Counted from the first letter of the stretch, positions 16,230 through 39,350 are shown. The stretch is 45,826 nt of DNA from a bacterium (GCA_021777565.1 JAJYDJ010000001.1:314856-360681), one strand, 5' to 3'. The notes: a model not told the origin generated them from the sequence alone. Program-made: numbers and translations.

Positions 16230-16288
16230 GGGGTGATTGTAGCATATCCCCTTGACTCCAAAGCTGTTTTCAGGATACGATAGTACAC

Positions 16289-16840: not shown

Positions 16841-16841
16841 C

Positions 16842-17168: not shown

Positions 17169-17181
17169 ATAAATATTGTAC

Positions 17182-17631: not shown

Positions 17632-17679
17632 AGGTAAAGTATAACACATATAGGCCGTCAATATGGTATAATCGCAGAC

Positions 17680-18483: not shown

Positions 18484-18486
18484 GGG

Positions 18487-19155: not shown

Positions 19156-19191
19156 CTAGAAGTAGTATATCACGAGGATGCAAGAGGGAGA

Positions 19192-20808
19192 CTATGGTGT
19201 TGGGGTATCAAGTGCAGACGTCGATGCACTTGCGTCAGGAAAAAGTGCATTAATCTCTTGTTGTGTTAATGGAGTCCATGGAGAGGCATCAGGGTTGGCA
19301 CTTGCTGCTTCAGGACTTTGGCCTTGATTCCACCACTTTGCCTGATAAGGAACTCCATTAAGAAGTACACGTTGTCCAGCTTGGTAGATATCAGTTCCAG
19401 ACCAGTCGGGATATGTCCCCGCTGGAAGTGTTGGCTGTGGAATTGGCTTTTCTCCAGGGAGGACGGGTCCTAAAAGCTGCCAAGGAGTTTGCCATGATTG
19501 CAGTACTGGATTATCTGGCATTTCTCCCCTTGTCCACCATTTCGCTTGATATACATTATGATGCCAGACTACTTTTGTCCCAGTAAGATATGATGATGTT
19601 TCGTCCCAAATTTCGTAGGGACTTGTATTGGGATCATCTGGAGTTTGTATACTCGCATCTGCATCCTGTGTCGTAACAACTGCCGCGTTTTGTTGTAATG
19701 TCCCGGTAAAGTCTTTGCTCAGTGTCTGTGCAAATGCATATTTCCCTTGTTTTACACCACTGCAAGAATCAGATACGATTTTTGTATCAACATAATTATC
19801 TCCACAAGGAATATCTCTGTTGGCAGACCACATAGACATTCTTCCCAGTCCTTGTTGTGTCGCAAATGTGTTGAGTGTGGTTGCATCATCAAGGGTAACT
19901 ATTTCATCACTCGTATCATTTTGCCCGATCATTACGGTGGTACCAATTTTTCTCCAGAGTGTTGCACTATTGAGGTTGATTCCTGCTTGCTTATAGAGTA
20001 TACCCAGTTGACGATGTGTTTCGTTTAATGCTTTCTCTGATGCTTGCTCCATGGTGTCATTCTTATCTTTACTATTTCCATAATCCATTGTCATGACATT
20101 GATACCGGAAACATCTACTTTTGCGGCGAGCATGGCAGCAATTGCATTTGTCCCTTCAACACTCAACCCTTGTGGACTGACAGGGAGTGTTAGCCAAACA
20201 GCGAGATTTTGTTTGGCAGCTCTTTTTTGTTGTTGAAGGAGTGCGATGGCTGTCGCGCGTCTTTTCATAGCATCTGTGTCGTTGAGCCCATCGCCCTCAA
20301 GATCCAGATCAATGGTATCGACAGTGTATCTATCTACCACTTCCTGATAGGCAGCCTTTAGTGTGTCAATGTTTTTACATGTGAGCGCCAATTCTTGATT
20401 TCTTTGTCCACCAAAAGAAACCGTAATATTACCCCCTTCTTGTCTCAGTCTGGCTATTCGTCTGTCCATGTCCAGTCCTCCACGTGCCTGATCCAGCGTG
20501 TAGGATGCTCCCCATGTCGGCATGCATCCATCATTAGGAGAGGCAACAATAAATGAGAGAACGAATGTTTTTGGAGTGCCAGGTGCAAGTTGCTCAAACG
20601 CATATCGTGGAGTAGCTGTGACATCAACATATGATGCAAACCATGGCTTATGTCCTGCCGTAATGCGACTATCTTGCCAATGTAAAAATCCCAAATAGAT
20701 TCCGCCAGCAATGCCAATGAGGATAAGAATTGCAAGAAGTACTCTCCAAGGAGAAAGTCTTCTTTGTGGAGTATCTACCACAACTGATTGTGTTTTCTTT
20801 TTCGTCAT
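19192..20808 (-). CDS. GH18 chitinase-like protein with an N-terminal TM anchor and two C-terminal chitin-binding (CBM5/12) modules
   Basis: Catalytic DTIDLDLE (DxxDxDxE), SFGG, INVMTMDYG, SMWSANRD; two W...Y..G..V...YQAKWW modules. ATG 20808 overlaps the upstream TGA. Confidence 0.9.
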   Translation of the reverse strand: MTKKKTQSVVVDTPQRRLSPWRVLLAILILIGIAGGIYLGFLHWQDSRITAGHKPWFASYVDVTATPRYAFEQLAPGTPKTFVLSFIVASPNDGCMPTWGASYTLDQARGGLDMDRRIARLRQEGGNITVSFGGQRNQELALTCKNIDTLKAAYQEVVDRYTVDTIDLDLEGDGLNDTDAMKRRATAIALLQQQKRAAKQNLAVWLTLPVSPQGLSVEGTNAIAAMLAAKVDVSGINVMTMDYGNSKDKNDTMEQASEKALNETHRQLGILYKQAGINLNSATLWRKIGTTVMIGQNDTSDEIVTLDDATTLNTFATQQGLGRMSMWSANRDIPCGDNYVDTKIVSDSCSGVKQGKYAFAQTLSKDFTGTLQQNAAVVTTQDADASIQTPDDPNTSPYEIWDETSSYLTGTKVVWHHNVYQAKWWTRGEMPDNPVLQSWQTPWQLLGPVLPGEKPIPQPTLPAGTYPDWSGTDIYQAGQRVLLNGVPYQAKWWNQGQSPEAASANPDASPWTPLTQQEINALFPDASASTSALDTPTP

Positions 20809-23976: not shown

Positions 23977-24014
23977 CTCATGCAAATACTCGCATTCTCG
24001 AGTTTTCCCATGAG
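23977..24014 (-). terminator. Hairpin that would be the tRNA-Gln 3' trailer/terminator in the empty site
   Basis: CTCATG-caaat-ACTCG-cattct-CGAGT-tttcc-CATGAG abuts the left crossover core. Confidence 0.45.
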
Positions 24015-24040
24015 CTGCGGGCAATGGACTACATTAGAAC
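24014..24040. repeat. Left junction: GCTGC core plus P' arm
   Basis: GCTGC (24014-24018) then GGGCAATGGACTACATTAGAAC; mirrors the arm at 39258-39280. Confidence 0.7.
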
Positions 24041-24114
24041 CTATTATACACAACTTTCGCTCTCACGGTCATATTGATTAACTATTATAAGCAGCAAACA
24101 GTTATATTGATAAT

Positions 24115-24888
24115 ATGGCGCGTGTTGTAAATATTTACAGGTATAAAACTACTAATATTGGCGATCGTTACTCATCGCCATCTTTATATTTTGATTGGCT
24201 ACGTGATGCCGATACAACTGATATCTGGACAGAAAACATAGGTAAATCAATTAATGACATTCGTAAGAAAGTTCTTATTTTGGGTGGTGGAGGTTTAATA
24301 GCAAATCATGACTTTGAAAAGTCAGTTGCTTGGCTAAGTAATGCGCCTTTTGTAAAGAAAGTAATTTGGGGAGCAGGGCACAATACCCATGGTACAGATA
24401 GGATAGAGAAAGTTAGTAGATATATTAACAAGTTTGATCTTGTAGGAATCCGAGATATAGGTACTAAATATACATGGGTACCTTGCGTAAGCTGTATGCA
24501 CAAATTATTCGATATTGAGTATGCCACCAAACATGAGATTGTGGTATATGAGCACAGAAGCTTCCCTTTAGACATAAATATTTACCCTAAGCACAATAAT
24601 CGTTCAGATAACTTGGAGGAAGTACTTGCCTTCTTGGGTTCTGGAGAAACTATTATTACAAATAGCTATCATGGTGCATATTGGGCAACTTTACTTAGGA
24701 GAAAAGTTATTCTCATAGATCCGTTCTCTTCAAAATTTAGTAGAATGAATTACTCTCCGATTATTTCAACTAGTCATGAGTATAAAAAATATCTTAAAGA
24801 TACCAGAATATATCCAAATGCATTAGAAGAATGTAGAAAAATCAATATTGATTTCGCAGAGAGTGTAAAAAGGATGGTTTTTTCTTAA
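24115..24888 (+). CDS. Polysaccharide pyruvyl transferase-like protein
   Basis: ILGGGGLI, IWGAG, VGIRD, VPCVS, ITNSYHGAYWATLL. Confidence 0.7.
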   Translation: MARVVNIYRYKTTNIGDRYSSPSLYFDWLRDADTTDIWTENIGKSINDIRKKVLILGGGGLIANHDFEKSVAWLSNAPFVKKVIWGAGHNTHGTDRIEKVSRYINKFDLVGIRDIGTKYTWVPCVSCMHKLFDIEYATKHEIVVYEHRSFPLDINIYPKHNNRSDNLEEVLAFLGSGETIITNSYHGAYWATLLRRKVILIDPFSSKFSRMNYSPIISTSHEYKKYLKDTRIYPNALEECRKINIDFAESVKRMVFS

Positions 24889-24904
24889 CATCCTTGTAGA
24901 AGAG

Positions 24905-25426
24905 TTATCTATGCAACTGCTTCCATAGATCAGTAGCATCTTGAAACATTGCTTTTCCTAAATCTCCCCATGGAACAAACTCATGAACGTTTGCACTAGG
25001 AACAAAATCTCTTTCCCACGTTTTTCCATTATCAGGATCTGGACGTGAAGGTGATAATTCATCGAGATCACAAATCATTCGCGCTTGGTAAAAGATATCT
25101 CCTTCGACAGTATTTGGATTATTTGGGTATGTTACTTTTTGTACCCCAAGTATACGAATGTTCTTAACAGTAATTGTTACCTCCTCATCAAGTTCACGTA
25201 TAAGTGTTTCTTCAATTGATTCTACTCCCTCTGGTTTCCCCCCAGGTATTTGCCATTTACCAGTATTGACAGATCGGCAGATTAGTATCTCACCTTTATT
25301 GTTAAAGCATATTCCATATACTTGAGTAATCGGTAGAAATGTATCTTTTTGATCTGTGCGTATCCATTCAAGATTAATAGTAGTGCCTTCATATACATAT
25401 GAGGATTGGGGATTTTTAGTATCCAT
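24905..25426 (-). CDS. NUDIX hydrolase (paralog of 33801-34340)
   Basis: IPGGKPEGVESIEETLIRELDEEV. Confidence 0.9.
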   Translation of the reverse strand: MDTKNPQSSYVYEGTTINLEWIRTDQKDTFLPITQVYGICFNNKGEILICRSVNTGKWQIPGGKPEGVESIEETLIRELDEEVTITVKNIRILGVQKVTYPNNPNTVEGDIFYQARMICDLDELSPSRPDPDNGKTWERDFVPSANVHEFVPWGDLGKAMFQDATDLWKQLHR

Positions 25427-25486
25427 ATATCAATAATAACAGAAATACATATTGTATTCAATAAACTGGTACGATAGAATGTCCAC

Positions 25487-26446
25487 ATGCAAACAGCATT
25501 GATATGTGGGGCAAGTGGTTTTATTGGCACTCACCTTGTTAGACGACTTAAAAATGAAGGCTACTGGGTAAGAGGAGTGGATATTAAAGCACCTGAGTTT
25601 AGTGACTCAACAGCAAATGAGTTTTTTCTTCTCGATTTAAGAAAGGAGCAAGATTGTATAAAAGCATTAACTTTAGCTGACGGATTCGATGAAGTATATC
25701 AATTGGCAGCCGACATGGGAGGCATGGGATATATTGAATCTGCGGAGTGTGAGATTATGCATAATAATGTATTAATCAATACATATATGATTGATCAAGC
25801 AATTAAATTGAAAGCAAAGAAGTATTTTTATTCTTCATCAGCTTGCGTATATAGGGATATGAAAATTGGCGAAGATGCATTAACTGAAGAAGAAGCGTAT
25901 CCTGCACTTCCTGATAATGAATATGGTTGGGAGAAATTATATTCAGAGAGGGTTGTTAGTGCGTATGGTCGCAAATATGGAATCACTGTGAAAATATCTA
26001 GATTTCAAAACTGCTATGGTCCAGAAGGCGCATGGATTGGTGGAAGAGAAAAGGCTCCAGCAGCAATTTGTAGGAAAATAGCAGAAGCCCAAGATGGTGG
26101 TACAATTGAAGTGTGGGGCGATGGGACTGCTGTTAGATCCTTTATGTATATAGATGACTTACTTGATGGCATTCGCTTATTAATGAATTCGAATGTCTCA
26201 GAGCCTGTACATATTGGCAGCCCTGAATATGTCTCAGTTAATCAATTGGTAGAGGTAGTTTCTATGATAGCTAAAAAAAGAATAAATATAAAGTATGTTA
26301 GTGGTCCTCGAGGTGCAGAATCACGTAATATTAGTAATGAAAAAATATATGCTCTTGGTTGGAAGCCAAAGTTCTCTTTAGAAGATGGGATTAGATTAAT
26401 GTATCCATGGGTGGAAGAACAGGTATTACATTGTAAATATACATGA
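25487..26446 (+). CDS. NAD-dependent epimerase, GDP-mannose 3',5'-epimerase-like extended SDR
   Basis: GASGFIG, QLAADMGGMG, SSSACVY, YGWEK (YxxxK), GGREKAPAAICRK, WGDG. Confidence 0.88.
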   Translation: MQTALICGASGFIGTHLVRRLKNEGYWVRGVDIKAPEFSDSTANEFFLLDLRKEQDCIKALTLADGFDEVYQLAADMGGMGYIESAECEIMHNNVLINTYMIDQAIKLKAKKYFYSSSACVYRDMKIGEDALTEEEAYPALPDNEYGWEKLYSERVVSAYGRKYGITVKISRFQNCYGPEGAWIGGREKAPAAICRKIAEAQDGGTIEVWGDGTAVRSFMYIDDLLDGIRLLMNSNVSEPVHIGSPEYVSVNQLVEVVSMIAKKRINIKYVSGPRGAESRNISNEKIYALGWKPKFSLEDGIRLMYPWVEEQVLHCKYT

Positions 26447-27102
26447 AATTATTCATATTTGATTTTGATGGACCGATTAATAATCTAACAGAATCCAAAA
26501 AAGCTGCTTTACAGAAGATATCGCAGAAATTAAAGCTTGAAATGCCTCCTTTAACACAGTGGCATTTTATTAATTACATAGATCAGATCTATGAAGCGGA
26601 GAAAGAGTTCGATTATCAAAGGTTAGTTTCAAAAGTGTTAAGAAAGTTAGTACGCGAAAATCTTCTGCAAATCTCCGATACGACTATAGAAGACTTTGCA
26701 AGAATATTTAGTGAATTGCTATCGAAAAATATGATTATTCACCCAAACCTTGAGCAAATAATTGCTGGATATAAAAAGAATGGGGATGTTCAATGTTGTA
26801 TATACACAAATCAAAAACGTGAATATATTATCAATCTTCTCAAGGAGAACCATATTGACGAAACAATTTTTGAAGCAATCTATGGTAGAGAAATGTTTGA
26901 TGAAGTTAAACCTTCCATGAAAAATCTGATGCAAATTGCAAACGACTTTAGAGCTGAATATCAAGATGTGACTGTATTTGGAGATCGAGTCGTTCTCGAC
27001 TTAGAACCAGCAGCATATCTGGGTATGCGTACGGTATTGGTCAATAGATTTGTCTCAACCGCCGTTTTTTCTTTAGAAGACTTTACTGAAGATTCTCAAT
27101 AA
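26443..27102 (+). CDS. HAD-family phosphatase
   Basis: FDFDG (motif I), YTN, KP, VFGDRVVLD. Confidence 0.88.
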   Translation: MKLFIFDFDGPINNLTESKKAALQKISQKLKLEMPPLTQWHFINYIDQIYEAEKEFDYQRLVSKVLRKLVRENLLQISDTTIEDFARIFSELLSKNMIIHPNLEQIIAGYKKNGDVQCCIYTNQKREYIINLLKENHIDETIFEAIYGREMFDEVKPSMKNLMQIANDFRAEYQDVTVFGDRVVLDLEPAAYLGMRTVLVNRFVSTAVFSLEDFTEDSQ

Positions 27103-27952
27103 ATTGAGAGATTTGTGTTAAAGAACCCTGAATGTAATAACAAGGAATAGTCTCAGCAATAGATATAGCGAAATTCAATCTTGCTTGTGCAATTGACTGC
27201 GTGTCAAGGGATCTTAGTGGAGTGGTCATGTTGAAAATAGATCCGTTGATTAACCGTATATCCTTTGTAAGTTCTTCATATAGCATCCATTTCGTTTGAT
27301 CTAAAGAATATAACTTCGCAACTAAATTGTCAGCGTCATTAGTAACAACAGGTATGATAATATATGATAGCTTCGGAGGTGTTGATACGTTAACAATTTC
27401 TATCTCACTTTGAACATTCATATAATCGGATAATCTCTCTTTAGTTTTACTCTCGATATAAATCTTTTTCGTTTGTCCAGAGAAACCAATAGTAGCCGAG
27501 TTAAGAGAAGTCTTCTCATCTGAATATAAAGTGTACCCGTTTATTTTACATAGAAAAAGAGCTGTAGATGTTTTCCCCAGTCCTGTGAGATTTCCCATAA
27601 AGAGTATGCCCTTCCCATTTTTATGTATTGCCGACGAGTGAATAGTGTATATCCCAATCTCTTGACGATTTCTTTCTAAAATAGATTCACAGAGTACAAT
27701 TATGTCTGAGCTAGTATAGTCATTGTTAAAAACACCTTGGATATATGCTTTTGATTTATTGAGTCTATATTTTTTCAACTCTAAATTAACAACATCGATC
27801 TTACTCGTAGGATAGTTATCTAACTTTAAATCAGGTATAAACTTATACAACAAAGAGTTGTTAAGGATAGCATCCCAAATTAACTGGTGATCGATACCCT
27901 GCGTAATAATCTCTATCCCAAAGGTTTGTGAACCAATTGTTTTATAATTCAT
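27083..27952 (-). CDS. HPr-kinase/PEPCK-like P-loop kinase
   Basis: IHSSAI, GNLTGLGKTS (Walker A-like), LYSDE (Walker B-like). Confidence 0.6.
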   Translation of the reverse strand: MNYKTIGSQTFGIEIITQGIDHQLIWDAILNNSLLYKFIPDLKLDNYPTSKIDVVNLELKKYRLNKSKAYIQGVFNNDYTSSDIIVLCESILERNRQEIGIYTIHSSAIHKNGKGILFMGNLTGLGKTSTALFLCKINGYTLYSDEKTSLNSATIGFSGQTKKIYIESKTKERLSDYMNVQSEIEIVNVSTPPKLSYIIIPVVTNDADNLVAKLYSLDQTKWMLYEELTKDIRLINGSIFNMTTPLRSLDTQSIAQARLNFAISIAETIPCYYIQGSLTQISQFIENLQ

Positions 27953-29082
27953 TATTTAACGTAACTCTCATAGAGCTGAACTAGCATTTCTACATTTTTT
28001 CTCATATCCCAACTTTGTTTTACTTGAGTGAATGCATTATTAACTAATGTAGATCTAAGGTTGGTATCTTGAAGTAGTTTTTGAATCATTGCTGCTAGTT
28101 TATCGGGTTTATTTGGTTTCGCTAGTAAGGCTGTATGTTCATGTCTTGCAAACTCAATCATACCGCAACAATTACTTGTAACTATTGCGCAGCCAGATGC
28201 AGCGGCTTCCATCATAGTCGTTAAGACACCCTCGTAGTTCGATGATGGGCAAAGAAATACTTTAGATCTGTGATAGTAGTCTTGTAATACTGATTCATCA
28301 ACATTATGGTAGAGTTCCACTTTATCGGTTAAATCAAGATCTTTTATTCTGTTTTTTAGATTATCTAATTCAGGTCCATCACCGACCATTACAAGTTTAT
28401 TGAATGCAATTCCCATCTTTAGTAATATTGTTAACGCATCTAATATATTATAGATTCCTTTATATGCAAACAGTCTCCCAACATATAATAAGTCTATGTC
28501 TCGTATATCATTAGAAAATGTAAACTCATTTAAATTGATACCATTATAATTTATCTCAATATCTTTGTTCTCTAGTTTTGGGTATAAACTCATCCAGCCT
28601 TCTTTTATTGACCCAGAAACAGCGATAAATCTATTTGGACGGTCAAGAAATATATCATCAAATGACCTATATTCAACTGGTACACCATGTAGGTGAAGTA
28701 CGTTTGTAAAGCTTTCTGGGATAAAGATACTATCAGAAAGTAAATGCGTTATTACTAAGTCATAACTGTCCTTGTTTTCAAAATAGAAAGACTGAGCTTT
28801 TTGCCCAAAGTAAATAGCTTCTTTGTCCCATCGTGTCCAATCCATAGTGGCTTCTTCTGTATATATTTTTCTCTGTGATGGACTAAGAAGTATTTCATGT
28901 ACTTTAATTTGACGGTTTTGGTGACGGAATTGATTATATAGCGTAGAATATGCTATCGGTTTTGCAGTAAGAATAGTCACATCATGCCCAAGTTGGCTCA
29001 GTATTGCTGCTTGTTGTAAGGGTACAATCTCTCCGCCCCCGAGATAATATGATAATCGTGGATGATGAATTAGTAATTTCAT
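27952..29082 (-). CDS. GT4 (GT-B) glycosyltransferase
   Basis: GGGEI, YVGRLFAYKG, EGVLTTMMEAAASG (EX7E). Confidence 0.92.
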   Translation of the reverse strand: MKLLIHHPRLSYYLGGGEIVPLQQAAILSQLGHDVTILTAKPIAYSTLYNQFRHQNRQIKVHEILLSPSQRKIYTEEATMDWTRWDKEAIYFGQKAQSFYFENKDSYDLVITHLLSDSIFIPESFTNVLHLHGVPVEYRSFDDIFLDRPNRFIAVSGSIKEGWMSLYPKLENKDIEINYNGINLNEFTFSNDIRDIDLLYVGRLFAYKGIYNILDALTILLKMGIAFNKLVMVGDGPELDNLKNRIKDLDLTDKVELYHNVDESVLQDYYHRSKVFLCPSSNYEGVLTTMMEAAASGCAIVTSNCCGMIEFARHEHTALLAKPNKPDKLAAMIQKLLQDTNLRSTLVNNAFTQVKQSWDMRKNVEMLVQLYESYVK

Positions 29083-29083
29083 T

Positions 29084-29998
29084 CTATATCCCTCGTGTTC
29101 TTTTATGCTTACTCTGTAGAAAATGTAGATACGCCATATTCACTGTGGCTAACATTGCCCAATCTTGCTTTCTTAATGCATAACTATTTTTATTCATCCA
29201 TGTTTTAAAATATGTATATATAAGTTCTACAGTATTATGATGTTTTTTTACATAAGTAAGGAAATCTCGTGTATCATAGTAGAGTAATTTCTTGGAGCCT
29301 CTTCCAATTGTTGCAGAGACCTTATGGTAGGCTTTTGCTGTTGGTACTGAGCATTGTAGCCAACCTAAATCTGATATCCGCTTTTGCCAATCTGTGTCAG
29401 CATAGTATAGAAAAAAATTCTCGTCCATTAGACCTGTTTCTTTAATTACATTTCTTGGCAAAAGTATACATGCTCCAGGAAGTTTAGTTACCAGGAAGGG
29501 CTCTTTAGGACTTTTTTCATCTTCATAAACCCATTTTGGCATCGGCTTAGCATGAAAGATATTTACGTAGCCACCTGAAATTTCAAAAAGTTTTTTGTCA
29601 AAGTACGAATACATTCTAGGGCCAAATATTCCAGCTTTGCTATTAGATTCGGCTTCATTGACAAGTTCTTCAACGCAATGTTTATTCATGAAAACATCGT
29701 TGTTCATTGACAGAATATATTTCACAGAAGTTTTTAAAAAGAAAGATATTCCGACGTTGTTTCCTCCACTATAGCCCGTATCAGATTTTAAGTAAACGTA
29801 GTTAAATTCTGGGAAATCTGCTTGAATTTTGCTAGTAGAGTCATCACTTGATTTTCCATCAACTATAACCACCTCAATGTCTTTGAATGTTTGTTTTTTT
29901 ATGTGTTCAAGACATTCTTTTGTATCTTTATAGTTGTTCCAGTTGAGGATGACAATACCGACAGTTGGTTTTAGTGTATTTTTCTTTCGTAGGTCCAT
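29084..29998 (-). CDS. GT2 glycosyltransferase (rhamnosyltransferase-like)
   Basis: VILNWN, VDGKSSD, GYSGGNN, MNNDV, FFLYYADTDW. Confidence 0.9.
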   Translation of the reverse strand: MDLRKKNTLKPTVGIVILNWNNYKDTKECLEHIKKQTFKDIEVVIVDGKSSDDSTSKIQADFPEFNYVYLKSDTGYSGGNNVGISFFLKTSVKYILSMNNDVFMNKHCVEELVNEAESNSKAGIFGPRMYSYFDKKLFEISGGYVNIFHAKPMPKWVYEDEKSPKEPFLVTKLPGACILLPRNVIKETGLMDENFFLYYADTDWQKRISDLGWLQCSVPTAKAYHKVSATIGRGSKKLLYYDTRDFLTYVKKHHNTVELIYTYFKTWMNKNSYALRKQDWAMLATVNMAYLHFLQSKHKRTRGI

Positions 29999-30972
29999 AA
30001 GTTATCATTATATTTAGGTGAAATGTGAAATAATAGATTACTTGTTTTTTTGATTATAACATAACCTATAAAGGTTAGTTGTATCCTTAAAGGAAGAGAT
30101 CTAATATAGTCCCAATCTAGCTTAACAGCAATTTTATTCTTTACATCAATTAAGTTATCAGTCTGAAACTCAGGTAGCATAAACAGTGTATACGTATCAC
30201 AGAAAATTCGTTTATATACCTTCCAATATTCTTTTAAAGAAGTAGTCGGCTCATAGAAGCATGCTGCATCATATCGGATACGAATTGAGTTTCTACCAAA
30301 CCTTGAATAAACATCCAAAGTCAAATAAGTGTCGTCACCAATTCTGTCTGGTGGAACTCTCCAGATATCTTTATTTCTTAAAACATAAAATCGCCCATGG
30401 AAATATATCCTTGATCTTAATTCAAAAGTGTAAGGCATGTTAGGTTGCGGATCAACTAAAGCCAACTCATGATATGAGCTTACATCTTTCGTTGCCACTT
30501 GTGATAGTGGATATCTCGATCTGATGTCAATCATCCTAGCCAGGAGGGTACGAAGAAAGCTTTCTCCAGAGAATTGTCTTGCGAATGGATGCCCTCCTAC
30601 TATTAGTAATTCAGGATGTCTGCAAAGCTCATTTAATAAAATATGAATTGACGATCTACTTAGTTGTACGTCTGCATCAACTTTTATTATTGGTATATCA
30701 CTTTTCTCTAATTTAGATATTATTGTGCATAGTGCTTTGTTCATGCCTTTTTCGCTATATAAGATATTAATCTTCAAAACAGACAATGTTTTCTGTAGTA
30801 TCTTTGCTATTTGCTCTGTTTTATCAGTGCAGCCATTGATACAAATGTAGGTTTTTTCTAGTGTAAATTGTTTATCTGCAAATTTTACTGCTCTAGCGAT
30901 ACTTTCGAAAAACGCAGACAATGTTCTCTCTTCATTATAGGCAGGAACTATAATATAATATGAATGCTTCAT
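29971..30972 (-). CDS. GT2 glycosyltransferase
   Basis: IVPAYNEE, NGCTD, VDADV, GDDTYL. Confidence 0.85.
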   Translation of the reverse strand: MKHSYYIIVPAYNEERTLSAFFESIARAVKFADKQFTLEKTYICINGCTDKTEQIAKILQKTLSVLKINILYSEKGMNKALCTIISKLEKSDIPIIKVDADVQLSRSSIHILLNELCRHPELLIVGGHPFARQFSGESFLRTLLARMIDIRSRYPLSQVATKDVSSYHELALVDPQPNMPYTFELRSRIYFHGRFYVLRNKDIWRVPPDRIGDDTYLTLDVYSRFGRNSIRIRYDAACFYEPTTSLKEYWKVYKRIFCDTYTLFMLPEFQTDNLIDVKNKIAVKLDWDYIRSLPLRIQLTFIGYVIIKKTSNLLFHISPKYNDNLWTYERKIH

Positions 30973-31049
30973 ATGAGCGAGCCCTATAGGTTTGACACAT
31001 AATTAAAACTCAAGTAAGATTAGCTGACTATATCATATTTGGATAATTT

Positions 31050-31658
31050 ATGGCTAATACTGATTTAAGTTCTCGCTATACTCTCTTCGTCCTTAAACCT
31101 GACGCTATAGATCAAGCCCTTGATCCGATAATGATTAATGATCTAGAAGAAGCAGGGCTAACAGTTGTAAAACATAAGTTATTACATTTGACCCCCGAAC
31201 AGGCAGCAGTTCTTTATTCAGAAAAGGAAAGATATAATTATTTCTCCCAGTTGGTCAGTTTTATGGCGTCGAGCCAGTCCTTTTTCCTATTGATTAAATT
31301 TAATCATGACACAGAAGCTGATATTGTTATTGAAGCAAAAAAATATAGAGATTGGGCGAGGTTACATCTGAAGTTAGATAACTATGAGCTCACAGAGAGC
31401 GACATGAGGCAACTTGCAATGGGGACCCATCCACTACAAGCAGAGATTACCACAACAATGGCATTAAGAAATTTAATTCACGTTCCAGACGATTTGGAAT
31501 CAGTGATGCCACTATTAGCAGAATTATTTACCGAAGATGACATTGATGAATTGGAAAATAGAGAGCCAGAATTACACGCAGCGCTGAGTGTGGCAAGGCA
31601 AGAGATAGCGATTTCCAGAGATATAGAAACTCATTCTAGTAATAAAGAGAGGGGATAA
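31050..31658 (+). CDS. Divergent nucleoside-diphosphate kinase-like protein
   Basis: TLFVLKPDA, LTPEQAAVLY, YFSQLVSFMAS, NLIH (phospho-His position). Confidence 0.75.
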   Translation: MANTDLSSRYTLFVLKPDAIDQALDPIMINDLEEAGLTVVKHKLLHLTPEQAAVLYSEKERYNYFSQLVSFMASSQSFFLLIKFNHDTEADIVIEAKKYRDWARLHLKLDNYELTESDMRQLAMGTHPLQAEITTTMALRNLIHVPDDLESVMPLLAELFTEDDIDELENREPELHAALSVARQEIAISRDIETHSSNKERG

Positions 31659-32693
31659 ATGAAATACTTGGGCGTCAGTATTGTCATATGTTGTCACAAC
31701 AGTTCAAAAGTTATTGAAAACACATTGCTCCATCTTGCTAAGCAACAAGTTACATCTCAACGACAATGGGAGATAATTCTAGTTGATAATGGTTCAATAG
31801 ATAATACTATTCCTATCGTAAAGAAATTTTTAAGCCAATATATACAACTGAAAGAGATATTAAGAATTGTTAAAGAGAAAAATCTCGGACTAGCCAACGC
31901 AAGAAATAAAGGTTATTTTTCTTCAAAGTACGATATCATAAGTTTTATTGATGATGATAACTTGGTATCGCCTAATTGGGTTGATAGAGTGGGCCAAATT
32001 ATGGAAAGTGATCCCCATATAGGCGTTTGTGGAGGACAAAGCAAAGAGCCGCCCTATCTCAAAAAACCATTTTGGTTTGAGAAATATAAAGAATGTTATG
32101 CAATTGGCAGGCAAGGGAAAGGTTCTCAAGATATTACATCCCAAAGAGGATTTGTATGGGGAGCAGGAATGAGCGTAAGAAAAAAAGCATGGAAGCAACT
32201 AATAAAAAAACATTTCACATTTTTCTTACAAGGAAGGTTGGGGGAAATTAAGAATGCTGGAGAAGACTCGGAGTTATGCTTTGCTTTACGATTGGATGGT
32301 TGGAAAGTCTGGTATGATGATCGACTTATATTTATACATGCCATATCTCAAGATAGACTAAGTTGGTCTGAATTAAGAAAAATGTTTCGTGGCTTTGGTG
32401 TCGGCAGAGCAGGTCACGATCCATATTTCTTTGCTGAGGAACAAAGTCCTACATTATTTGCTAAGTTGTTTTATATGAGATGGTATGGTCAAGTCTGTAT
32501 GGTGATCTTTACAGTGTTGGTTCCATCCTTCCTGAAGTCAGTGAAAGACACACCTAAAGGCTGGGATGGAAATCCTTATATCTTGAAATTAGAACACTCC
32601 TGGGGAAGAATATGCTTCTTGTTATCAAAGCGATCAAAGTACGATCAATATACTCAGATATTAAGGCATAACTTTAAACAGAATAATATATGA
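31659..32693 (+). CDS. GT2 glycosyltransferase
   Basis: SIVICCHNS, VDNGSID, GLANARN, FIDDD, WGAGM, GEDSELC. Confidence 0.92.
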   Translation: MKYLGVSIVICCHNSSKVIENTLLHLAKQQVTSQRQWEIILVDNGSIDNTIPIVKKFLSQYIQLKEILRIVKEKNLGLANARNKGYFSSKYDIISFIDDDNLVSPNWVDRVGQIMESDPHIGVCGGQSKEPPYLKKPFWFEKYKECYAIGRQGKGSQDITSQRGFVWGAGMSVRKKAWKQLIKKHFTFFLQGRLGEIKNAGEDSELCFALRLDGWKVWYDDRLIFIHAISQDRLSWSELRKMFRGFGVGRAGHDPYFFAEEQSPTLFAKLFYMRWYGQVCMVIFTVLVPSFLKSVKDTPKGWDGNPYILKLEHSWGRICFLLSKRSKYDQYTQILRHNFKQNNI

Positions 32694-33586
32694 AGATATT
32701 GTATCTATACGATATTGATAATTGGGCTATACATAATGTTGGTAAGTTATGGTTTGAGAATGTTAAACAACATGAGATTGTTTTCAAAAACTTTTTTGAG
32801 GTTCAAGACGAGAAAAAAATTTATATTAACTTCGATCTTATATGGTTTGGTTATATAGACCTTTATCTATTTTCTAAGGAAAAACCCAAAAATTCTATTG
32901 TTTCTATTCACGATCCGAAAGAGATTTTTGATCAAGTTCCTAATTGGAAAAAAACTTTACCAAATAAAGATAAGATTGACATATTAAGAACTGTTTTTAA
33001 ATGTGTGACCATTTCAAGAGAATTGTTCACAATTTTAACAAAATACGGCATAGATGTAGAACACATACCTACGGCAAGTAGATTACCCTATAGAGATACT
33101 TTAAAAGTTTTCACAGAAAAATCAGATATAACTTCTGTCTTTCAAGTATACAGAAGAAAAAACCCAGATTTAATGTATTCTCTACAACAGAAAGTAGTGA
33201 ATGAACTAAATATAAAATTTGACCTTAAGGTCGGACGTGATATCTTAACAAGGACAAAATATATCAAGTATTTAGATAGTCATGAGATATATATTTGTAC
33301 ATCATATCAGGAAGGTGGACCAATCCCCGTTATGGATGCTATGAACAGAGGGATGGTTATCTTATCAACACCCGTGGGGCAGGTGTTGGAACTAGTTGAA
33401 GATGGAGTAAATGGGTTCTTCTGTTATTCTTTTGATGATTTTTATAACAAGATACAGATGCTATCGGAAGATTTGATACTGTTGGATAGTATGAGACAGA
33501 ATGCAATTGCGACAATCAAGAGCAAAAGAAGTTTGTCTATAATCGATCAGAAGGTGGATATTGTAATCAACAAGTTCTACCGCTAG
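32690..33586 (+). CDS. GT4-like glycosyltransferase
   Basis: C-terminal CTSYQEGGPIPVMDAMNRG...STPVG...DGVNGF. Confidence 0.8.
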   Translation: MKILYLYDIDNWAIHNVGKLWFENVKQHEIVFKNFFEVQDEKKIYINFDLIWFGYIDLYLFSKEKPKNSIVSIHDPKEIFDQVPNWKKTLPNKDKIDILRTVFKCVTISRELFTILTKYGIDVEHIPTASRLPYRDTLKVFTEKSDITSVFQVYRRKNPDLMYSLQQKVVNELNIKFDLKVGRDILTRTKYIKYLDSHEIYICTSYQEGGPIPVMDAMNRGMVILSTPVGQVLELVEDGVNGFFCYSFDDFYNKIQMLSEDLILLDSMRQNAIATIKSKRSLSIIDQKVDIVINKFYR

Positions 33587-33800
33587 TCCCCCTTCTAAAG
33601 CAGGGTATGCTGACAAAGTTATAAATATCGAACATCCCAAGATACTTTGGAATCATTCATGAAACTGAAATTAGATTGTCCCCGCCGTTAGCCTAACTAC
33701 GTCCTTTGATTATACTTTGAAGTTTCTTAATATCTAAGAGTAGATACCCAGCCCCTTCGTCTGATATGCGCCTTGCTCAATAACTGAAATCTCTGCATAC

Positions 33801-34340
33801 CTAGGGGCGACGAGAATCCTGCCATAACTTAATAGCATCATTAAACATTGCTCTTCCCGCCTCACCCCATGGTACCAACTCAGTAACCTGATCTTGAGTA
33901 ACAAATTGTCTTTCCCATGTTTGATTTATTGCTGGATCTGGTGTTGAAGGCAATATTTCTTCAATATCACAAATCATCCTCGCTTGATAAAAATCATCTC
34001 CGATAGCTTGATCTGGGTTGTTCGGGTAATGAACTCTTTGTACGCCTAGCATTTGCACGTTACTGACTCTAATATCCACCTCCTCATGTAATTCACGTTG
34101 TAAAGTTGCTGTTAGAGTTTCATTGCCTTCTGGTGTGCCACCTGGGATTTGCCATCCACCAGTAGAAGAAGATCTACATACTAGTATTTCACCAGCTGCA
34201 TTAAAGCAAATGCCATAAACTTGAGTTACAGGAGAGAATTCATCTTCCTTATCAGTTCTAATCCATTCAGTGGTTATAGGCGCACCATGAAACTCATAAG
34301 CAGTTCTTGGATATCTGTTGGCTGGATCTAGCTCATTCAT
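33801..34340 (-). CDS. NUDIX hydrolase (paralog of 24905-25426)
   Basis: IPGGTPEGNETLTATLQRELHEEV; start refined to ATG 34340. Confidence 0.9.
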   Translation of the reverse strand: MNELDPANRYPRTAYEFHGAPITTEWIRTDKEDEFSPVTQVYGICFNAAGEILVCRSSSTGGWQIPGGTPEGNETLTATLQRELHEEVDIRVSNVQMLGVQRVHYPNNPDQAIGDDFYQARMICDIEEILPSTPDPAINQTWERQFVTQDQVTELVPWGEAGRAMFNDAIKLWQDSRRP

Positions 34341-34468
34341 CCTGATCAATTATACTAAATAGATAATAAATAATTAACTAACCTACTTGTACTCAAAACA
34401 CAAACGATATAATCTAAACTCTCAGATATATATAAATCAGCGATAGCTTATGTTAGAATTAATTGAAT

Positions 34469-34855
34469 ATGACTAAAATTCAAGAAGAAGTTAAGAAGTA
34501 CTTAGATGAACGGAGTTGGAATCACTTAGCCCCTGCAAATTTAGCCAAGTCTATTATGATCGAGGGTGCTGAACTTCTTGAATTATTCCAGTGGGATAAT
34601 TATACAGTTGAACAAATTAAAGAAAAACCAGAATTAGAGGAAAAGATAAAAAAAGAAATTGCTGATGTAATGATTTACTGTACAGAACTGGCAGTTCATC
34701 TGAACTTAGACATAGAAGAGATTATCCTTTATAAATTAAAGCTCGCTTCTGAAAAATATAAAGCTGCAGAAGTTATGAAACATAAAGGAGAAAAAACAGA
34801 AGATTCTTTTTACTTAAAGAAGAAGATGGAATATCGTGCTGAGAAAAAGAGTTAG
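34469..34855 (+). CDS. MazG-like nucleotide pyrophosphohydrolase (dCTPase-like)
   Basis: NLAKSIMIEGAELLELFQW...EIADVMIY. Confidence 0.9.
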   Translation: MTKIQEEVKKYLDERSWNHLAPANLAKSIMIEGAELLELFQWDNYTVEQIKEKPELEEKIKKEIADVMIYCTELAVHLNLDIEEIILYKLKLASEKYKAAEVMKHKGEKTEDSFYLKKKMEYRAEKKS

Positions 34856-35109
34856 CAGACTTACAACTAAAGTTAGGCCGTGAGCTTCTCTAGTGCCCCG
34901 TACAACTATTACCCCTGACATTTTGACTAATATCATCTTTCGTAAGATTAAGCCTATCTAGTTCATTTAAAAGCTTTACAAAATCATATATTATACCTCA
35001 GGGTAGGATACAACTTCACCATTAATGCAGATCTATTCTAAGAAGCGTAAGAGTGCTATTATCCATAGTAAGTTCACATTTAAATAATTTAAAGATGTAA
35101 TAAAGAGTT

Positions 35110-35811
35110 ATGAAAATCACTAAGATATTTCGACTAGAAATTCCTGAGAACGCAAGTGTAAATCAGATACGAGATTATTTGACACTCGAAGAGACGAAAA
35201 AGGTTATCGACTTTCTTGAATCCTCAACCTTATTTGAAAAACAAGTAAAATCATTAAGAAGCAGATATAAGATTCCTCTTAATGGATATCCTACAGACAA
35301 CAAACATTCCCCCTACGACATTTTAGGACGAGAGAGCTTTTCTGCGCTTGAGTCTGATTGCTTTACATTACTAAATACTCTTACCCTTCCTGAATATTGG
35401 CTAGAAACAATAAAAATGTTTGTATTCCACAATGCAATTATTACTCCAAAGAAAGAAGCTTTTCGAATAATTCCGAGAGAGAATACGCCACAAGGTAGAG
35501 AGCTATATCCATATATAGAAATCCTAGAGAGGCTAAGTAAAAGGCAATTTTTACTTGAAGTCGAAAAAAACTGGCAAGAAATAGAAGAAGCAATGAAAGT
35601 ATTACCTAGTACCCCCAAGCATAAAATGCTGCGATCAGACCTGGCAAAAAGGATAGTTGAGCTACACGACATCGATAGTAAAACATTCGCACAAATTGCA
35701 GATCAGCTATTTCAAGAGTTAATTGAATCTGGTGACTATAACATTATCAACGAAGACTATGTTAAAAACCTATACCACCGATGGAAAAAACGTAAAGATT
35801 CTGTTTTTTAA
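35110..35811 (+). CDS. Hypothetical protein, possibly with a C-terminal HTH (element regulator)
   Basis: C-terminal RIVELHD...TFAQIADQL...YVKNLYHRWKK resembles an HTH; first gene of the mobility module. Confidence 0.6.
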   Translation: MKITKIFRLEIPENASVNQIRDYLTLEETKKVIDFLESSTLFEKQVKSLRSRYKIPLNGYPTDNKHSPYDILGRESFSALESDCFTLLNTLTLPEYWLETIKMFVFHNAIITPKKEAFRIIPRENTPQGRELYPYIEILERLSKRQFLLEVEKNWQEIEEAMKVLPSTPKHKMLRSDLAKRIVELHDIDSKTFAQIADQLFQELIESGDYNIINEDYVKNLYHRWKKRKDSVF

Positions 35812-35928
35812 GCCAAAGCGTATTAGTTAATATCCATAACAACTCATACCCAGATCATTAGATACGACCTTTAGCCGATACAGACTTCAATAACTACAAG
35901 AGTTACTCTAATTCAGAAAGGTAACTCC

Positions 35929-36216
35929 ATGCATAAAATTAAAGTAACGGATATACAAATCATACCTATTGTCCCAAAAGATGGATTGGTAGGATTTGCA
36001 AGCATTGTGCTTAATAATTTGCTTTATCTTAGTTCAATCGGTATTTATACTCGACTAGAAGGTGGATTTAGGCTAACCTATCCTACAAAAAAAGTAGAAA
36101 TTAAGAACATAAACATCTTCTATCCAATTAGCAAAGAGTTTGCAGCCTATTTGGAAATATCTGTAACCAAAAAATTTGAAGAAGTAATAAAAGCGAGGTT
36201 ATATGCAAACGAATAA
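35929..36216 (+). CDS. SpoVG-like nucleic-acid-binding protein
   Basis: VTDIQI...GFASIVLN...GI...G...YP...FYPI fits the SpoVG pattern. Confidence 0.7.
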   Translation: MHKIKVTDIQIIPIVPKDGLVGFASIVLNNLLYLSSIGIYTRLEGGFRLTYPTKKVEIKNINIFYPISKEFAAYLEISVTKKFEEVIKARLYANE

Positions 36217-36370
36217 CCTACTGCCACAACAAGCAATTGATGAATTTAAAATCATATACCTCAAGAAATTTGGTAAAAAGATCACTGATGAACAAGCACG
36301 AGTACAAGCTATGCAATTGTACCAGCTCTATGACGCTGTGTATAGAAAACGAGTAAAGCAAAAGTCTTAG
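36203..36370 (+). CDS. Small helical protein (55 aa): MQTNNLLPQQAIDEFKIIYLKKFGKKITDEQARVQAMQLYQLYDAVYRKRVKQKS
   Basis: Below the ORF-track cutoff; overlaps the SpoVG-like stop; GAGG 4 nt upstream; fills the gap before rep. Confidence 0.75.
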   Translation: MQTNNLLPQQAIDEFKIIYLKKFGKKITDEQARVQAMQLYQLYDAVYRKRVKQKS

Positions 36371-36398
36371 CGTATTACTAGGACTTCTGTACACAAAT

Positions 36399-37577
36399 AT
36401 GATAATTACTATGATAGATACTATTGGCTTTTCTATACCTCTTGGGAGCTATACGGTTCTCGATCGAGCACTATTTACTCCTTCTCTTGATTTGATCGAT
36501 CCACAAAATGACTCAGAGGTCATCCAGTTCTTACAAACTAAGAAAGGGATTCAAAGCTATCGACTGAACCCCAAGCATACACAAAAAGAACAAGGTTTCG
36601 CTTATCCAAACATAACTATCTATGAGACATATAAGCATACCAGTGGGTATCAATGTAACCTCAAGCCACATATCTCTATTCCCAAAATGCTCTTTGGACA
36701 TAGTATTGAAGAGGTCAATGACACCTACTATCAAGAGGCTGTTAATACACTACAGTCACGACTCAAAGATATGGGCCTATTAGTATTCGAAAAAGCGATT
36801 CATGAGGCGAGCGTTACCACACTTCATTACTGCATAAACATACTGATGGAATCAGAGACAGACGCTCGAAGATTTCTCACGGCCTTAAGTAAAATGAATT
36901 TAGACGACAGGTACCAAACTCATGATCGTGACTATACAAATGGTGGACGATCTGTTCGTTTTCATACAGATACGTTTGAGCTAATAGCTTACTTGAAATA
37001 CTATGACTTTTTAGAAAGTGGTATGAACAGGATTGATAGAAAGCCGACACTACAAGAAAGAACGATAGCTGAGAGACTATCAAAGTCTAAAACGTTACCA
37101 CCATTGGTCAGAATAGAGGTAAGATTTAATGGGAAGCCATCAATACGAAAACACCTACATACCATTTTAGAAATAGATAAACCTACTTGGACATTGCGAG
37201 ACGTGTTTTCTGAAGACATAAGCAGAAAAGTAGTCAAGTTCTATTGGGATAAACTTATGGATAAACCAAACAATAGGCTTATGCTTATGAATATTTCACG
37301 ATCAGATATATATCGTAAAGCGAAAGAGAACTTCCAACAGATACCCCAACGTATCTTAGACGCGACAATTGGGAGCTTTGAAAGGTTACAGGCAGATGGG
37401 GCATTACAATTTAAAGAAGATGCGCTCAAATTGTATAGCCGAACCAAGTACTATAATGACCAAAAGCGAATAATGGAGTTTCTTCGTATAAATAACTTAG
37501 CAACAGATACTAGGCTTATTGAATTTATTGATAGTGCGGTTTACCATAAACCCATGCAGTTAGGACTTCCTATATGA
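36399..37577 (+). CDS. Putative rolling-circle replication initiator/relaxase (Rep_trans / phage gene II-CRI-like)
   Basis: MIDTIGF start, SIPKMLFGHSIEEV, VTTLHYCIN (degenerate RxD strand), AYLK (YxK), VRIEVR; located beside the integrase. Confidence 0.55.
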   Translation: MIITMIDTIGFSIPLGSYTVLDRALFTPSLDLIDPQNDSEVIQFLQTKKGIQSYRLNPKHTQKEQGFAYPNITIYETYKHTSGYQCNLKPHISIPKMLFGHSIEEVNDTYYQEAVNTLQSRLKDMGLLVFEKAIHEASVTTLHYCINILMESETDARRFLTALSKMNLDDRYQTHDRDYTNGGRSVRFHTDTFELIAYLKYYDFLESGMNRIDRKPTLQERTIAERLSKSKTLPPLVRIEVRFNGKPSIRKHLHTILEIDKPTWTLRDVFSEDISRKVVKFYWDKLMDKPNNRLMLMNISRSDIYRKAKENFQQIPQRILDATIGSFERLQADGALQFKEDALKLYSRTKYYNDQKRIMEFLRINNLATDTRLIEFIDSAVYHKPMQLGLPI

Positions 37578-37579
37578 CA

Positions 37580-37608
37580 TTGACATTGTTTGCTTGGAGA
37601 GAAATAAT
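37580..37608 (+). promoter_or_regulatory. Sigma70 promoter of the recombinase
   Basis: TTGACA (37580-37585), 17 nt spacer, AATAAT (37603-37608); predicted start site near 37615. Confidence 0.6.
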
Positions 37609-37614
37609 ACAGAC

Positions 37615-37701
37615 GTGCTCAGATATTCCTGTTGGGATTTTTAATGCCCTCATTGGACAGATCCTAATAGGTCTGAGCACAACCAGTGGGGGCATTTGAG
37701 T
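37615..37701 (+). ncRNA. Structured 5' leader of the recombinase mRNA with two alternative folds
   Basis: Fold A: 37615-23/37672-80 plus 37628-38/37661-71. Fold B: 37643-56/37683-96. Each long helix includes two G-U pairs. Confidence 0.55.
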
Positions 37702-39339
37702 ATGGATAATAAAATTGAATACTTTATTTATGCAAGAAAAAGTAGTGAATCTGAAGATAGACAAGTACTTTCTATTGAGTCTCAAAAAAATGAAATGAAA
37801 GACCTTGTTAAACGTGTCGGACTTAACATCGTTGCTATAAAGGAGGAGGCACACTCAGCAAAAGCTCCAGGCAGACCCGTCTTTAATCAAATGCTTGATG
37901 AAATCGAGCAAGGTAAGGCTCAAGGAATTATTGTTTGGAATCCTGATAGAATGTCTAGAAATTCAGTTGATACAGGAAGAATTATTTATCTGCTCGACCT
38001 TGGAAAACTTCAAGAACTGGTGACTCCCTCGCAAGTATTTCGGAATACCCCCAATGATAAGTTCCTTCTATCTCTGCTTTGTTCTACAGCTAAATTGGAT
38101 AACGACAATAAGGGTGTCAATGTAAAACGAGGACTCAAAGCCAAGGCTGAAATGGGTATTTATCCAGCGCCTGCTCCTACAGGGTATGTAAATAACAAAT
38201 ACGCAGAGCGTGGCAATAAGACAGTTGAGATTGATCCAGAACGTTTTGATTTAGTCAAAAAGATGTTTGACATGGTTCTTTCACAAAAATATACACCGAT
38301 ACAGGTACTCAAGATTGCTACAGATGATTGGAAGTTTAAAACCAAGGAAGGCAAGAAGCTGGCACGTAGTACGTGGTATAGGATGCTTACTAATCCAGTC
38401 TATGCAGAAACCTTTGAATACCCTCTCAATAGTGGTAACTGGCATAAAGCTGCACACCTACACATGATTACGGACGAACAGTTTGATTTTATCCAGATTT
38501 TACTAGGTAAAAAAGGCAAACAGAAGCCTAAAAGTCACATATTCGCATTTACTGGACTTATTCGCTGTGGAGAATGTGGAGCAATGATAACGTGCGAAGA
38601 GAAGATAAAGAGACAGAAAAGTGGCAAGGTACATGTATATATTTACTACCATTGTACTAAGAGAATAAACCCAGATTGCACACAAGGTTCCATAGAAGAG
38701 GAAGAGCTAAAGAGACAAATTCTTATAAAACTTTCTGAAATAAAAATACCTAATGAGTTTCATAACTGGGCATTAAAGTGGCTCAGGAAAACGAACCAGA
38801 CCGAGTTTCAAACAACAAGCGAAATACTCAGTTCTCAACAAAAAGCATATAAGCTCTGCTTAGAGCAAATAAGCGAGCTCATTGATATGCGAGCTGCAAA
38901 GGAAATTACACCAGAAGAGTTTAAGGAAAAGAAGCCAAACCTAGAAAAGGAAAAGAAACGACTGGAGGAGCTACTTAATGATACGGGAGAGCATGTGAGC
39001 AATTGGCTTGCAAAAGCAGATGATGCTTTTGACTTTGCGAGAGACGCAGTAGCAAAGTTTAATGATGGAGAGTTAGAAGACAAGCGGTATGTCCTTTCAC
39101 GTCTTGGTTCGAACCTCCTCTTAAAAGACAAAATCCTCACTATTACGCTCGACGAGGTACTTGAAGCACTTAAAAGTGTAGCAGAAGAGGCAAATCAACT
39201 TTGTGATACGTTAGAACCTGTAGAAGGTATTGATAGGACAGTCCAATTAGAGACTTTGTACGAACAAAATCCACGAATGCTGCTGAGCCTGGACTCGAAC
39301 CAGAATAAACAGCTCCAAAGGCTGCTGTCCTACCATTAG
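37702..39339 (+). CDS. Large serine recombinase (resolvase, recombinase, zinc-ribbon and coiled-coil domains)
   Basis: YARKS catalytic Ser, SAKAPGRPVF, DRMSRN, CGECG...YYHC...C; the C-terminus reads through the antisense tRNA. Confidence 0.95.
   Translation: MDNKIEYFIYARKSSESEDRQVLSIESQKNEMKDLVKRVGLNIVAIKEEAHSAKAPGRPVFNQMLDEIEQGKAQGIIVWNPDRMSRNSVDTGRIIYLLDLGKLQELVTPSQVFRNTPNDKFLLSLLCSTAKLDNDNKGVNVKRGLKAKAEMGIYPAPAPTGYVNNKYAERGNKTVEIDPERFDLVKKMFDMVLSQKYTPIQVLKIATDDWKFKTKEGKKLARSTWYRMLTNPVYAETFEYPLNSGNWHKAAHLHMITDEQFDFIQILLGKKGKQKPKSHIFAFTGLIRCGECGAMITCEEKIKRQKSGKVHVYIYYHCTKRINPDCTQGSIEEEELKRQILIKLSEIKIPNEFHNWALKWLRKTNQTEFQTTSEILSSQQKAYKLCLEQISELIDMRAAKEITPEEFKEKKPNLEKEKKRLEELLNDTGEHVSNWLAKADDAFDFARDAVAKFNDGELEDKRYVLSRLGSNLLLKDKILTITLDEVLEALKSVAEEANQLCDTLEPVEGIDRTVQLETLYEQNPRMLLSLDSNQNKQLQRLLSYH
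39258..39283. repeat. Right junction: P arm plus GCTGC core
   Basis: GTACGAACAAAATCCACGAAT then GCTGC (39279-39283) at the tRNA 3' end. Confidence 0.7.
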
Positions 39340-39350
39340 ACGACTCAGCA
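39280..39350 (-). tRNA. tRNA-Gln (anticodon TTG), CCA not encoded
   Basis: TGCTGAG/CTCAGCA acceptor stem; D-arm GTCTAATGGTAGGAC; anticodon arm GCAGC-CTTTGGA-GCTGT; T-arm CTGGTTCGAGTCCAG. Confidence 0.95.

Follow-up and report, generated by a model that had tools for sequence, protein, structure and literature searches.

The window analyzed here is a stretch of 45,826 nucleotides of bacterial DNA (GCA_021777565.1 JAJYDJ010000001.1:314856-360681), in which a gene coding for a large serine recombinase (LSR) lies at one end of a genomic island and runs into a tRNA-Gln(UUG) gene located on the opposite strand. This tRNA is the only one found in the window by ARAGORN; its discriminator base is at 39280 and, as read from the sequence, no CCA is encoded. 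The G+C content falls from ~0.41-0.44 to ~0.34-0.37 over 24-38 kb, and it is near 0.41 again by 39-40 kb. The pentanucleotide GCTGC, present at 39279-39283 and at 24014-24018, is the only sequence common to both ends of the island. The original prediction placed the crossover in this core, inside the recombinase gene; the coordinates given for the core, the codon and the tails were all correct on re-reading of the sequence. The features of the island and of its attachment (att) sites are the following, with positions counted from the first letter of the window:

37702..39339, + strand: open reading frame (ORF) of the LSR in its integrated form, 545 aa, with Pfam domains, an intact YARKSS and the four zinc-ribbon Cys
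39279..39350, - strand: tRNA-Gln(UUG), detected by ARAGORN
24018..39280: island body, 15,265 bp between the crossover copies, G+C ~0.35
39257..39281, + strand: P arm of attP/attR, 25 bp, corresponding to codons 519-527 (LYEQNPRML), with TGGA at 9-12 and GTTCGTAC at 17-24 reading outward
39281..39282: predicted crossover dinucleotide TG, attR copy, placed by the dyad centre and the attL/attR identity blocks
24016..24017: predicted crossover dinucleotide TG, attL copy, placed in the same way
39282..39301, + strand: B' arm, formed by the antisense acceptor and T-arm of the tRNA, with TGGA at 9-12 and CTCGAACC at 13-20
24017..24041, + strand: P' arm, with TGGAC at 9-13 and ATTAGAAC at 17-24
24015..24077, + strand: displaced native tail (L + RAMDYIRTYYTQLSLSRSY + TGA), which would rejoin codon 526/527 in frame on excision
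23997..24016, + strand: B arm, host DNA predicted to follow the tRNA immediately on its 3' side when the site is empty, as deduced from attL

The recombinase ORF starts with the ATG at 37702 and its stop codon occupies 39337-39. Pfam matches were obtained for Resolvase (7e-21), Recombinase (3e-5) and Zn_ribbon_recom (4e-10); in the catalytic YARKSS motif, R12, K13 and S14 are invariant across 51 homologs, as are C289, C292, C318 and C326 of the zinc ribbon. By sequence, the nearest solved structure is that of the SPbeta integrase (9dxh), and the AlphaFold2 (AF2) model of the homolog P0035 displays long helices at 355-459, as expected for the coiled coil of an LSR. Judged from its sequence, the window protein is a large serine recombinase with intact catalytic, Recombinase and zinc-ribbon domains, and no recombinase other than this serine type was found in the island.

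Codon 527 of the LSR is the CTG at 39280-82. The integrated protein ends with PRML-LSLDSNQNKQLQRLLSYH, that is 18 aa after L527, and these last 18 codons are read antisense through the tRNA, because the tRNA-Gln(UUG) overlaps the end of the ORF on the minus strand; in particular, LDSN is the antisense of the T-arm, and SYH-stop that of the D-loop. At the left copy, the CTG is followed in frame by RAMDYIRTYYTQLSLSRSY and by a TGA at 24075-77, and the predicted excised product is 546 aa long, vs. 545 aa for the integrated one. The TGGACT word is equidistant from the core in both arms.

Counting arm positions outward from the T|G junction (39281|39282 and 24016|24017), the T-loop word (C/A)GAACC is found at 15-20 in the B' arm and at 20-25 in the P' arm, that is 5 bp further out. 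Both strands of the whole window were scanned for matches to the P-type word GGAY-N3-RTTMGAAC at no fewer than 11 of its 12 positions; of the three matches returned, two are the predicted P' arm (12/12) and the predicted P arm (11/12); both P-type arms are equidistant from the TG dinucleotide. The blocks of identity between attL and attR extend from -2 to +2 in the window and, in five related elements, from 0 to +5 (L141), -3 to +6 (L142), -2 to +3 (L149), -2 to +2 (L191) and -3 to +1 (L173); the six blocks intersect at the two central nucleotides only. The dyad symmetry of the arms, together with these six attL/attR pairs, thus identifies the central TG as the crossover dinucleotide. The assignment of the crossover to tRNA nucleotides 72-71, i.e., to bases 2-3 of codon 527, is strongly supported by these sequence comparisons. 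Insertion at this point keeps the tRNA complete, its 3' trailer alone being altered. The predicted circle junction is CCACGAATGCTGCGGGCAATGGAC, with …AATCCACGAATGC-TG-CGGGCAATGGACTAC… as flanks, while the predicted empty site reads …TTTCCCATGAGC-TG-CTGAGCCTGGACTCG….

The same arrangement is found throughout a large family. Homologs of the window LSR number in the thousands, and the few carrying a source name are from Patescibacteria or Minisyncoccia. A scan of bacterial and archaeal species-representative genomes, in which the homolog alignment A1 was used as the query (a single-protein query returned none), yielded 560 relatives, from which 80 loci were kept; metagenome-assembled genomes of the candidate phyla radiation (CPR)/Patescibacteria account for the majority of them. 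An antisense tRNA overlaps the end of the ORF in 46 of these 80 species-level loci, and 12 tRNA types are hit (Gln, Asn, His, Ser, Trp, Lys, Leu, Ile, Asp, Glu, Arg and Val). The reading phase is shared by 44 of the 45 loci analyzed: the base complementary to tRNA nucleotide 72 always occupies the middle position of one and the same codon, located three codons past a conserved Pro.

Among the 120 closest proteins, at least 66 end with a tRNA-antisense tail, about 24 stop 2 to 3 residues past the crossover codon, due to a stop codon in the antisense T-stem, and about 14 have a native tail of the type L-R-A-L-D-(D/E)-V-R-T. Integrated tails range from 3 to more than 60 aa, as set by the tRNA that is hit, and are often only 3 aa long; native tails extend for 1 to 25 aa after R-T, the one of L035 ending one residue after it. 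The left-end tail of the window, RAMDYIRTYY, is in register with the native motif D-x-(V/I)-R-T-(Y/F) of the homologs, with D at P+7 and R-T at P+10/+11, while the LYxQNP motif upstream of the crossover is the translation of the P arm. The original prediction had proposed to look for an MLRxxDxIRTY-type tail among the homologs, and the left-end tail proved to be of that type. A search of the 10-kb flanks, for which ~0.4 false positives are expected over all loci, showed that the far end of five integrated relatives, L141 (LRVLDQVRTSLMFNYTNV), L142 (LGELDNIRTYYTNFYA), L149, L173 and L191, also bears an in-frame native-type tail, and that the central dinucleotide matches.

Logos built from 45 attR and 15 native-type sites contain the word GGAtTCGAACC at 10-20 in B' and GTTcGAAC at 17-24 in P', and the match between P' and B' peaks at a shift of 5 bp (0.63, vs. 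0.33 or less at the other shifts). In LSRs, the distinction between attP and attB is known to depend on the zinc-ribbon word being displaced by 5 bp (Rutherford et al. 2013, PMC3783163). As far as can be judged from the sequences, the window family follows the textbook att geometry of serine integrases, with short sites, a 2-nt crossover and a 5-bp word shift.

A natural pair of loci documents recombination at this position. P0014 (554 aa), the recombinase of element E1, is 67% identical to the window LSR, and it is identical to P0015 (530 aa) over residues 1-529. At L214 the recombinase gene ends with NPILLPR against the tRNA; at L213 the flanks are the same, with in addition an element of 7,996 bp lying exactly between gene and tRNA, which encodes its own 503-aa LSR and shares the core GCTCCC. 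The resident gene of L213 ends with NPILLPQWDSTRTEKFLREVWFPSNYQFQFV, a tail that comes from the left end of the incoming element. The core of this pair is at the same place as the window crossover, and the difference between the two loci is direct evidence that recombination at the core position swaps the C-terminus in frame. Since the resident P arm occupies the B position in L213/L214, the B arm seems to be loosely specified. A group I intron is present (Rfam RF00028, 72.6 bits) in the target tRNA beside P0015 (L214 11627-11826, minus strand), which is the reason why this tRNA is missed by ARAGORN; consequently, tRNA-adjacent loci are under-counted. With the far-end tails and this insertion pair, the location of attP inside the recombinase ORF and the in-frame exchange of the C-terminus, both put forward in the original prediction, are strongly supported.

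A third LSR, located upstream at L213 (590 aa), ends with WLHALDDVRTYFANI at the junction with the next element, indicating that three LSR elements are stacked at one tRNA. L156 is also a tandem: a native-tail gene is followed, after 8.6 kb, by a second LSR of the family overlapping a tRNA-Asn, the core being TC in both cases. The arrays, in which two or three different LSR elements share a single tRNA, span 357-19589 at L213 and 10001-20260 at L156; each of their internal junctions is a hybrid P-core-P' site, where the upstream recombinase gets a tail encoded by the next element. The use of native-tail genes as markers of free circular elements was considered and rejected, as several of them are found in long contigs and two are internal junctions of tandem arrays.

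A different reading of the window would be that GCTGC is a coincidental 5-mer and that the island ends elsewhere; a repeat of this length is indeed expected by chance, and a 24-mer of the predicted circle junction had one exact match among metagenome contigs (L139 861-884), which is spurious, because its flanks are unrelated GC-rich DNA. Coincidence is effectively refuted by the symmetry of the arms, the changes in G+C at the ends, the register of the native motif, the dozens of relatives with the same architecture and the insertion polymorphism. The L139 case calls for caution in junction searches performed with short exact words.

The most probable explanation, in which good confidence can be placed, is that of an LSR island located at the 3'-end of tRNA-Gln(UUG), with a coding attP and with an in-frame exchange of the C-terminus as a by-product of site placement. 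The 15.3-kb island would have been inserted by its own LSR at the extreme 3'-end of the tRNA, with strand exchange at TG. The whole attP, ~50 bp, is coding, the P arm corresponding to codons 519-527, while the native tail provides the P' arm with its initial 8 to 9 codons (RAMDYIRT). The recombinase would read the acceptor and T-arm of the tRNA as the B' half-site, while the P' arm would represent a copy of the T-loop word set 5 bp further out, distinguishing attP from attB. Integration would swap the last 19 codons for 18 antisense-tRNA codons, leaving the catalytic and DNA-binding domains untouched; the native tail would be parked at the far end of the island, and excision would rejoin it in frame. 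The C-terminus swap would thus be a consequence of the coding attP, rather than a demonstrated regulatory switch between isoforms.

Several observations weigh against this explanation. For the island of the window, exact-word searches revealed neither a circle junction, apart from one spurious match, nor an empty site, and the 90% cluster of P0001 has a single member, with no excised-form protein in the collection. Native-tail genes also occur in long chromosomal contigs; tandem arrays account for L156 and L213, but not for non-CPR loci such as L194, in a 4.3-Mb Aminicenantes chromosome, where there is no tRNA or second LSR within 10 kb. Furthermore, the AF2 model of a native-tail homolog predicts a helix at 528-544 (predicted local distance difference test score about 76-82) that runs through the crossover codon, which leaves room for a role of the tail at the protein level, and in one subgroup of the CPR proteins the tails have further residues in common (..F(A/S)xV(R/K)xW), located outside the att footprint.

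The last two points bear on whether the tail is a DNA site or a functional part of the protein. The conserved tail residues D, V, R and T fall on the DNA words of the P' arm. In native tails, Val is encoded by GTT in 11 of 11 cases, against a background of 0.28 elsewhere in the same genes (P=7e-7), and Arg by CGA or AGA in 12 of 13 (background 0.38; P=8e-5). The synonymous positions of the conserved tail are therefore frozen, a pattern of codon choice that shows a constraint at the DNA level, and the D-V-R-T tail would be conserved mainly because it is the P' DNA site. About 17 codons thus appear to be under a dual constraint, since they encode both protein and a two-armed DNA site that mimics the T-arm of the tRNA. 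On these sequence grounds the evidence leans against a dedicated protein function of the tail, which probably has none.

The original prediction went further, proposing that the native-tail and tRNA-tail proteins are functional isoforms that set directionality or stability, so that a separate directionality factor would not be needed; integration might for instance be carried out by the long native form, and excision by the tRNA-tail one. The tail swap is real and family-wide, the tail is predicted to be helical across the crossover, no recognizable Xis/recombination directionality factor (RDF) domain was detected by Pfam searches of the island proteins, and the same idea has been proposed for the serine integrase of phage Goe14. 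However, the conserved residues coincide with the P' DNA word and their synonymous sites are frozen, and some native tails, such as that of L035, stop one residue after R-T. Moreover, integrated tails are unrelated to each other, vary widely in length and derive from 12 tRNA types or, in arrays, even from a foreign element, so that no specific "excision tail" can exist. As to the missing domain match, it does not establish the absence of a directionality factor, because RDFs are too diverse to be excluded by a domain search; a conserved 55-aa ORF of the island is a candidate. State-specific isoforms are therefore not supported by the overlap of the tail with the P' half-site, the frozen synonymous sites and the arbitrary integrated tails, and this explanation is considered unlikely.

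Sensing could instead take place at the RNA level: the integrated gene would converge on an expressed tRNA, to which the 3'-end of its mRNA would be complementary, and its expression would be damped until excision brings back the native 3'-end. This proposal finds a basis in the convergent overlap of the 46 loci described above, where the tRNA is always antisense, but site geometry alone explains the arrangement equally well, and promoter and terminator scans around both island junctions gave results at chance level; damping of this kind seems highly improbable. A more general view, which appears quite doubtful too, is that the integration state is read through the 3'-end of the recombinase gene, replacing or supplementing a directionality factor throughout the CPR family. 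The readout could be a native helical tail vs. an arbitrary tRNA-derived one, or an mRNA 3'-end antisense to the target tRNA; if true, this would represent a self-sensing, single-protein, unidirectional system for integration and excision, aimed at conserved tRNA arms. A possible regulation of directionality by the tail swap has now become cleanly testable.

The island could also be a fossil, integrated once and now fixed, with no swap occurring at present. Every longer contig with the flanking host genes carries the island; moreover, no match in genome contigs was obtained with a 24-mer of the empty site or with a 25-mer taken from the 3' half of the tRNA, and exact look-ups of the host flank proteins revealed no empty site. 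Insertion polymorphism was seen at the att site of the 67%-identical homolog, not at the window island. Against a fossil stand the intact recombinase ORF, with all invariant residues present, and the near-perfect att arms. In addition, two contigs from other samples, L135 and L136, stop 6 and 2 nt past GCTGC at attL (window positions 24024 and 24020, respectively), which hints at heterogeneity at this site. A fixed island is thus rather improbable, and the window island is presumably still mobile.

In canonical serine integrases, such as A118/LI, Bxb1, phiC31 and SPbeta SprA, attP is normally intergenic and the targets are usually protein-coding genes. The window LSR resembles these enzymes in its domain set, in the ~50-bp attP and ~40-bp attB, and in the 2-nt crossover and 5-bp word shift; unlike them, its attP is wholly coding, the B' arm is the tRNA acceptor and T-arm, and the B arm appears loosely specified. 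A tyrosine integrase with attP inside its ORF, a tRNA gene as target and a product that differs by state is IntP/IntX of the Myxococcus phage Mx8. Similarly, in the SSV1-type ("suicidal") archaeal integrases (PMC7253208, PMC8371274), attP is inside the ORF, the targets are tRNA genes and the product differs by state. The likeness with Mx8 and SSV1 lies in the crossover inside the integrase ORF (codon 527 of 545 here) and in the state-dependent product; however, those enzymes are tyrosine recombinases, whereas the chemistry in the window is of the serine type. Furthermore, SSV integration splits the gene into two non-functional parts, while the window protein keeps all its domains.

The precedents in the original prediction were limited to tyrosine integrases, but a precedent among serine integrases does exist and is the closest to the window system. 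In the SPbeta-like Bacillus phage Goe14, attP lies within the part of the LSR gene that codes for the C-terminus; integration into spoVK occurs at a 3-nt core and the integrase loses 131 aa, and the authors put forward, as a speculation, that integration and excision are controlled by the long and the short form of the protein (Kohm et al., bioRxiv 10.1101/2021.11.22.469490). The two systems share the type of recombinase, the position of attP and the alteration of the C-terminus by integration. However, the target of Goe14 is protein-coding, whereas in the window the insertion is at the 3' tip of a tRNA gene and exchanges no more than 19 codons, the reading frame continues into the antisense tRNA, and a large CPR family is involved. 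Islander-type islands (PMC4383910) also adjoin a tRNA gene on its 3' side and have their integrase gene at the end next to the tRNA, as in the window; unlike the window LSR island, they use a tyrosine integrase, regenerate the 3' part of the tRNA and leave the displaced fragment as a direct repeat, while here 5 nt only are shared and there is nothing to regenerate.

The literature searched contained nothing on CPR LSRs or on LSRs targeting tRNA genes. New are the wholly coding attP that mimics a tRNA arm, the targeting of tRNA tips by serine integrases in a large, mainly CPR family, and the stacking of elements, through which unrelated recombinases exchange their tails. A very large undescribed LSR family would thus use the tips of tRNA genes as attB, with attP entirely inside its own ORF, which explains the odd "LDSNQ...SYH" endings annotated in many of its proteins; serine integrases that are directed to tRNA arms, and whose second arm is loosely specified, could also be of practical interest to engineers.

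The remainder of the island comprises a backbone and a cargo:

35929..37577, + strand: backbone genes common to related elements (SpoVG-like, 55-aa ORF, 392-aa ORF), from locus comparison
36203-36370, + strand: 55-aa backbone ORF, with no Pfam match
24115..34855: island-specific cargo, not common to related elements

The 55-aa ORF, which is conserved in 15 related loci at a distance of 1 to 3 kb on the upstream side of the recombinase, may be an accessory or directionality factor, its candidacy being based on this conservation; for the unassigned backbone ORFs, Pfam gave nothing usable even with the E-value limit raised to 1. The cargo represents a cluster for glycan modification, including five glycosyltransferases, a pyruvyl transferase, an epimerase, a HAD protein, two NUDIX proteins, and NDK-like and MazG-like proteins. 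Host genes at the flanks code for a GDSL lipase on the left, and for DHODH, MutL and MutS on the right. Stacking of elements at one tRNA bears on how the tiny CPR genomes gain cargo, such as surface-glycan genes.

Some further observations concern the relatives. In more distant non-CPR homologs (L194, L196, L208, L186 and L211, from contigs of Aminicenantes, Nitrospira, Bacteroidetes and others), the motif V-(K/E)-D-V-R-T-(F/Y) is retained, along with the GTTCGAAC/GTTAGAAC word, and none of these five loci has a tRNA or a second LSR within 10 kb. At L130, a degenerate antisense tRNA (11776-11848) is located 90 bp past the stop codon of a native-tail recombinase gene; it looks Asn-like, with anticodon GCT and 5/7 acceptor pairs, and its core resembles the attP core in the gene. 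The att site, or a position just beyond it, is also where several GTDB contigs terminate (L009, L016, L018, L029, L044 and L061). The IMG/VR viral contigs (L082-L124) encode only a related clade of shorter LSRs (~420 aa), devoid of the C-terminal extension and hence uninformative as to the tail; since this clade ends at about query residue 490, residues 490-545 represent a clade-specific extension. Some of these viral contigs carry two copies of the shorter LSR.

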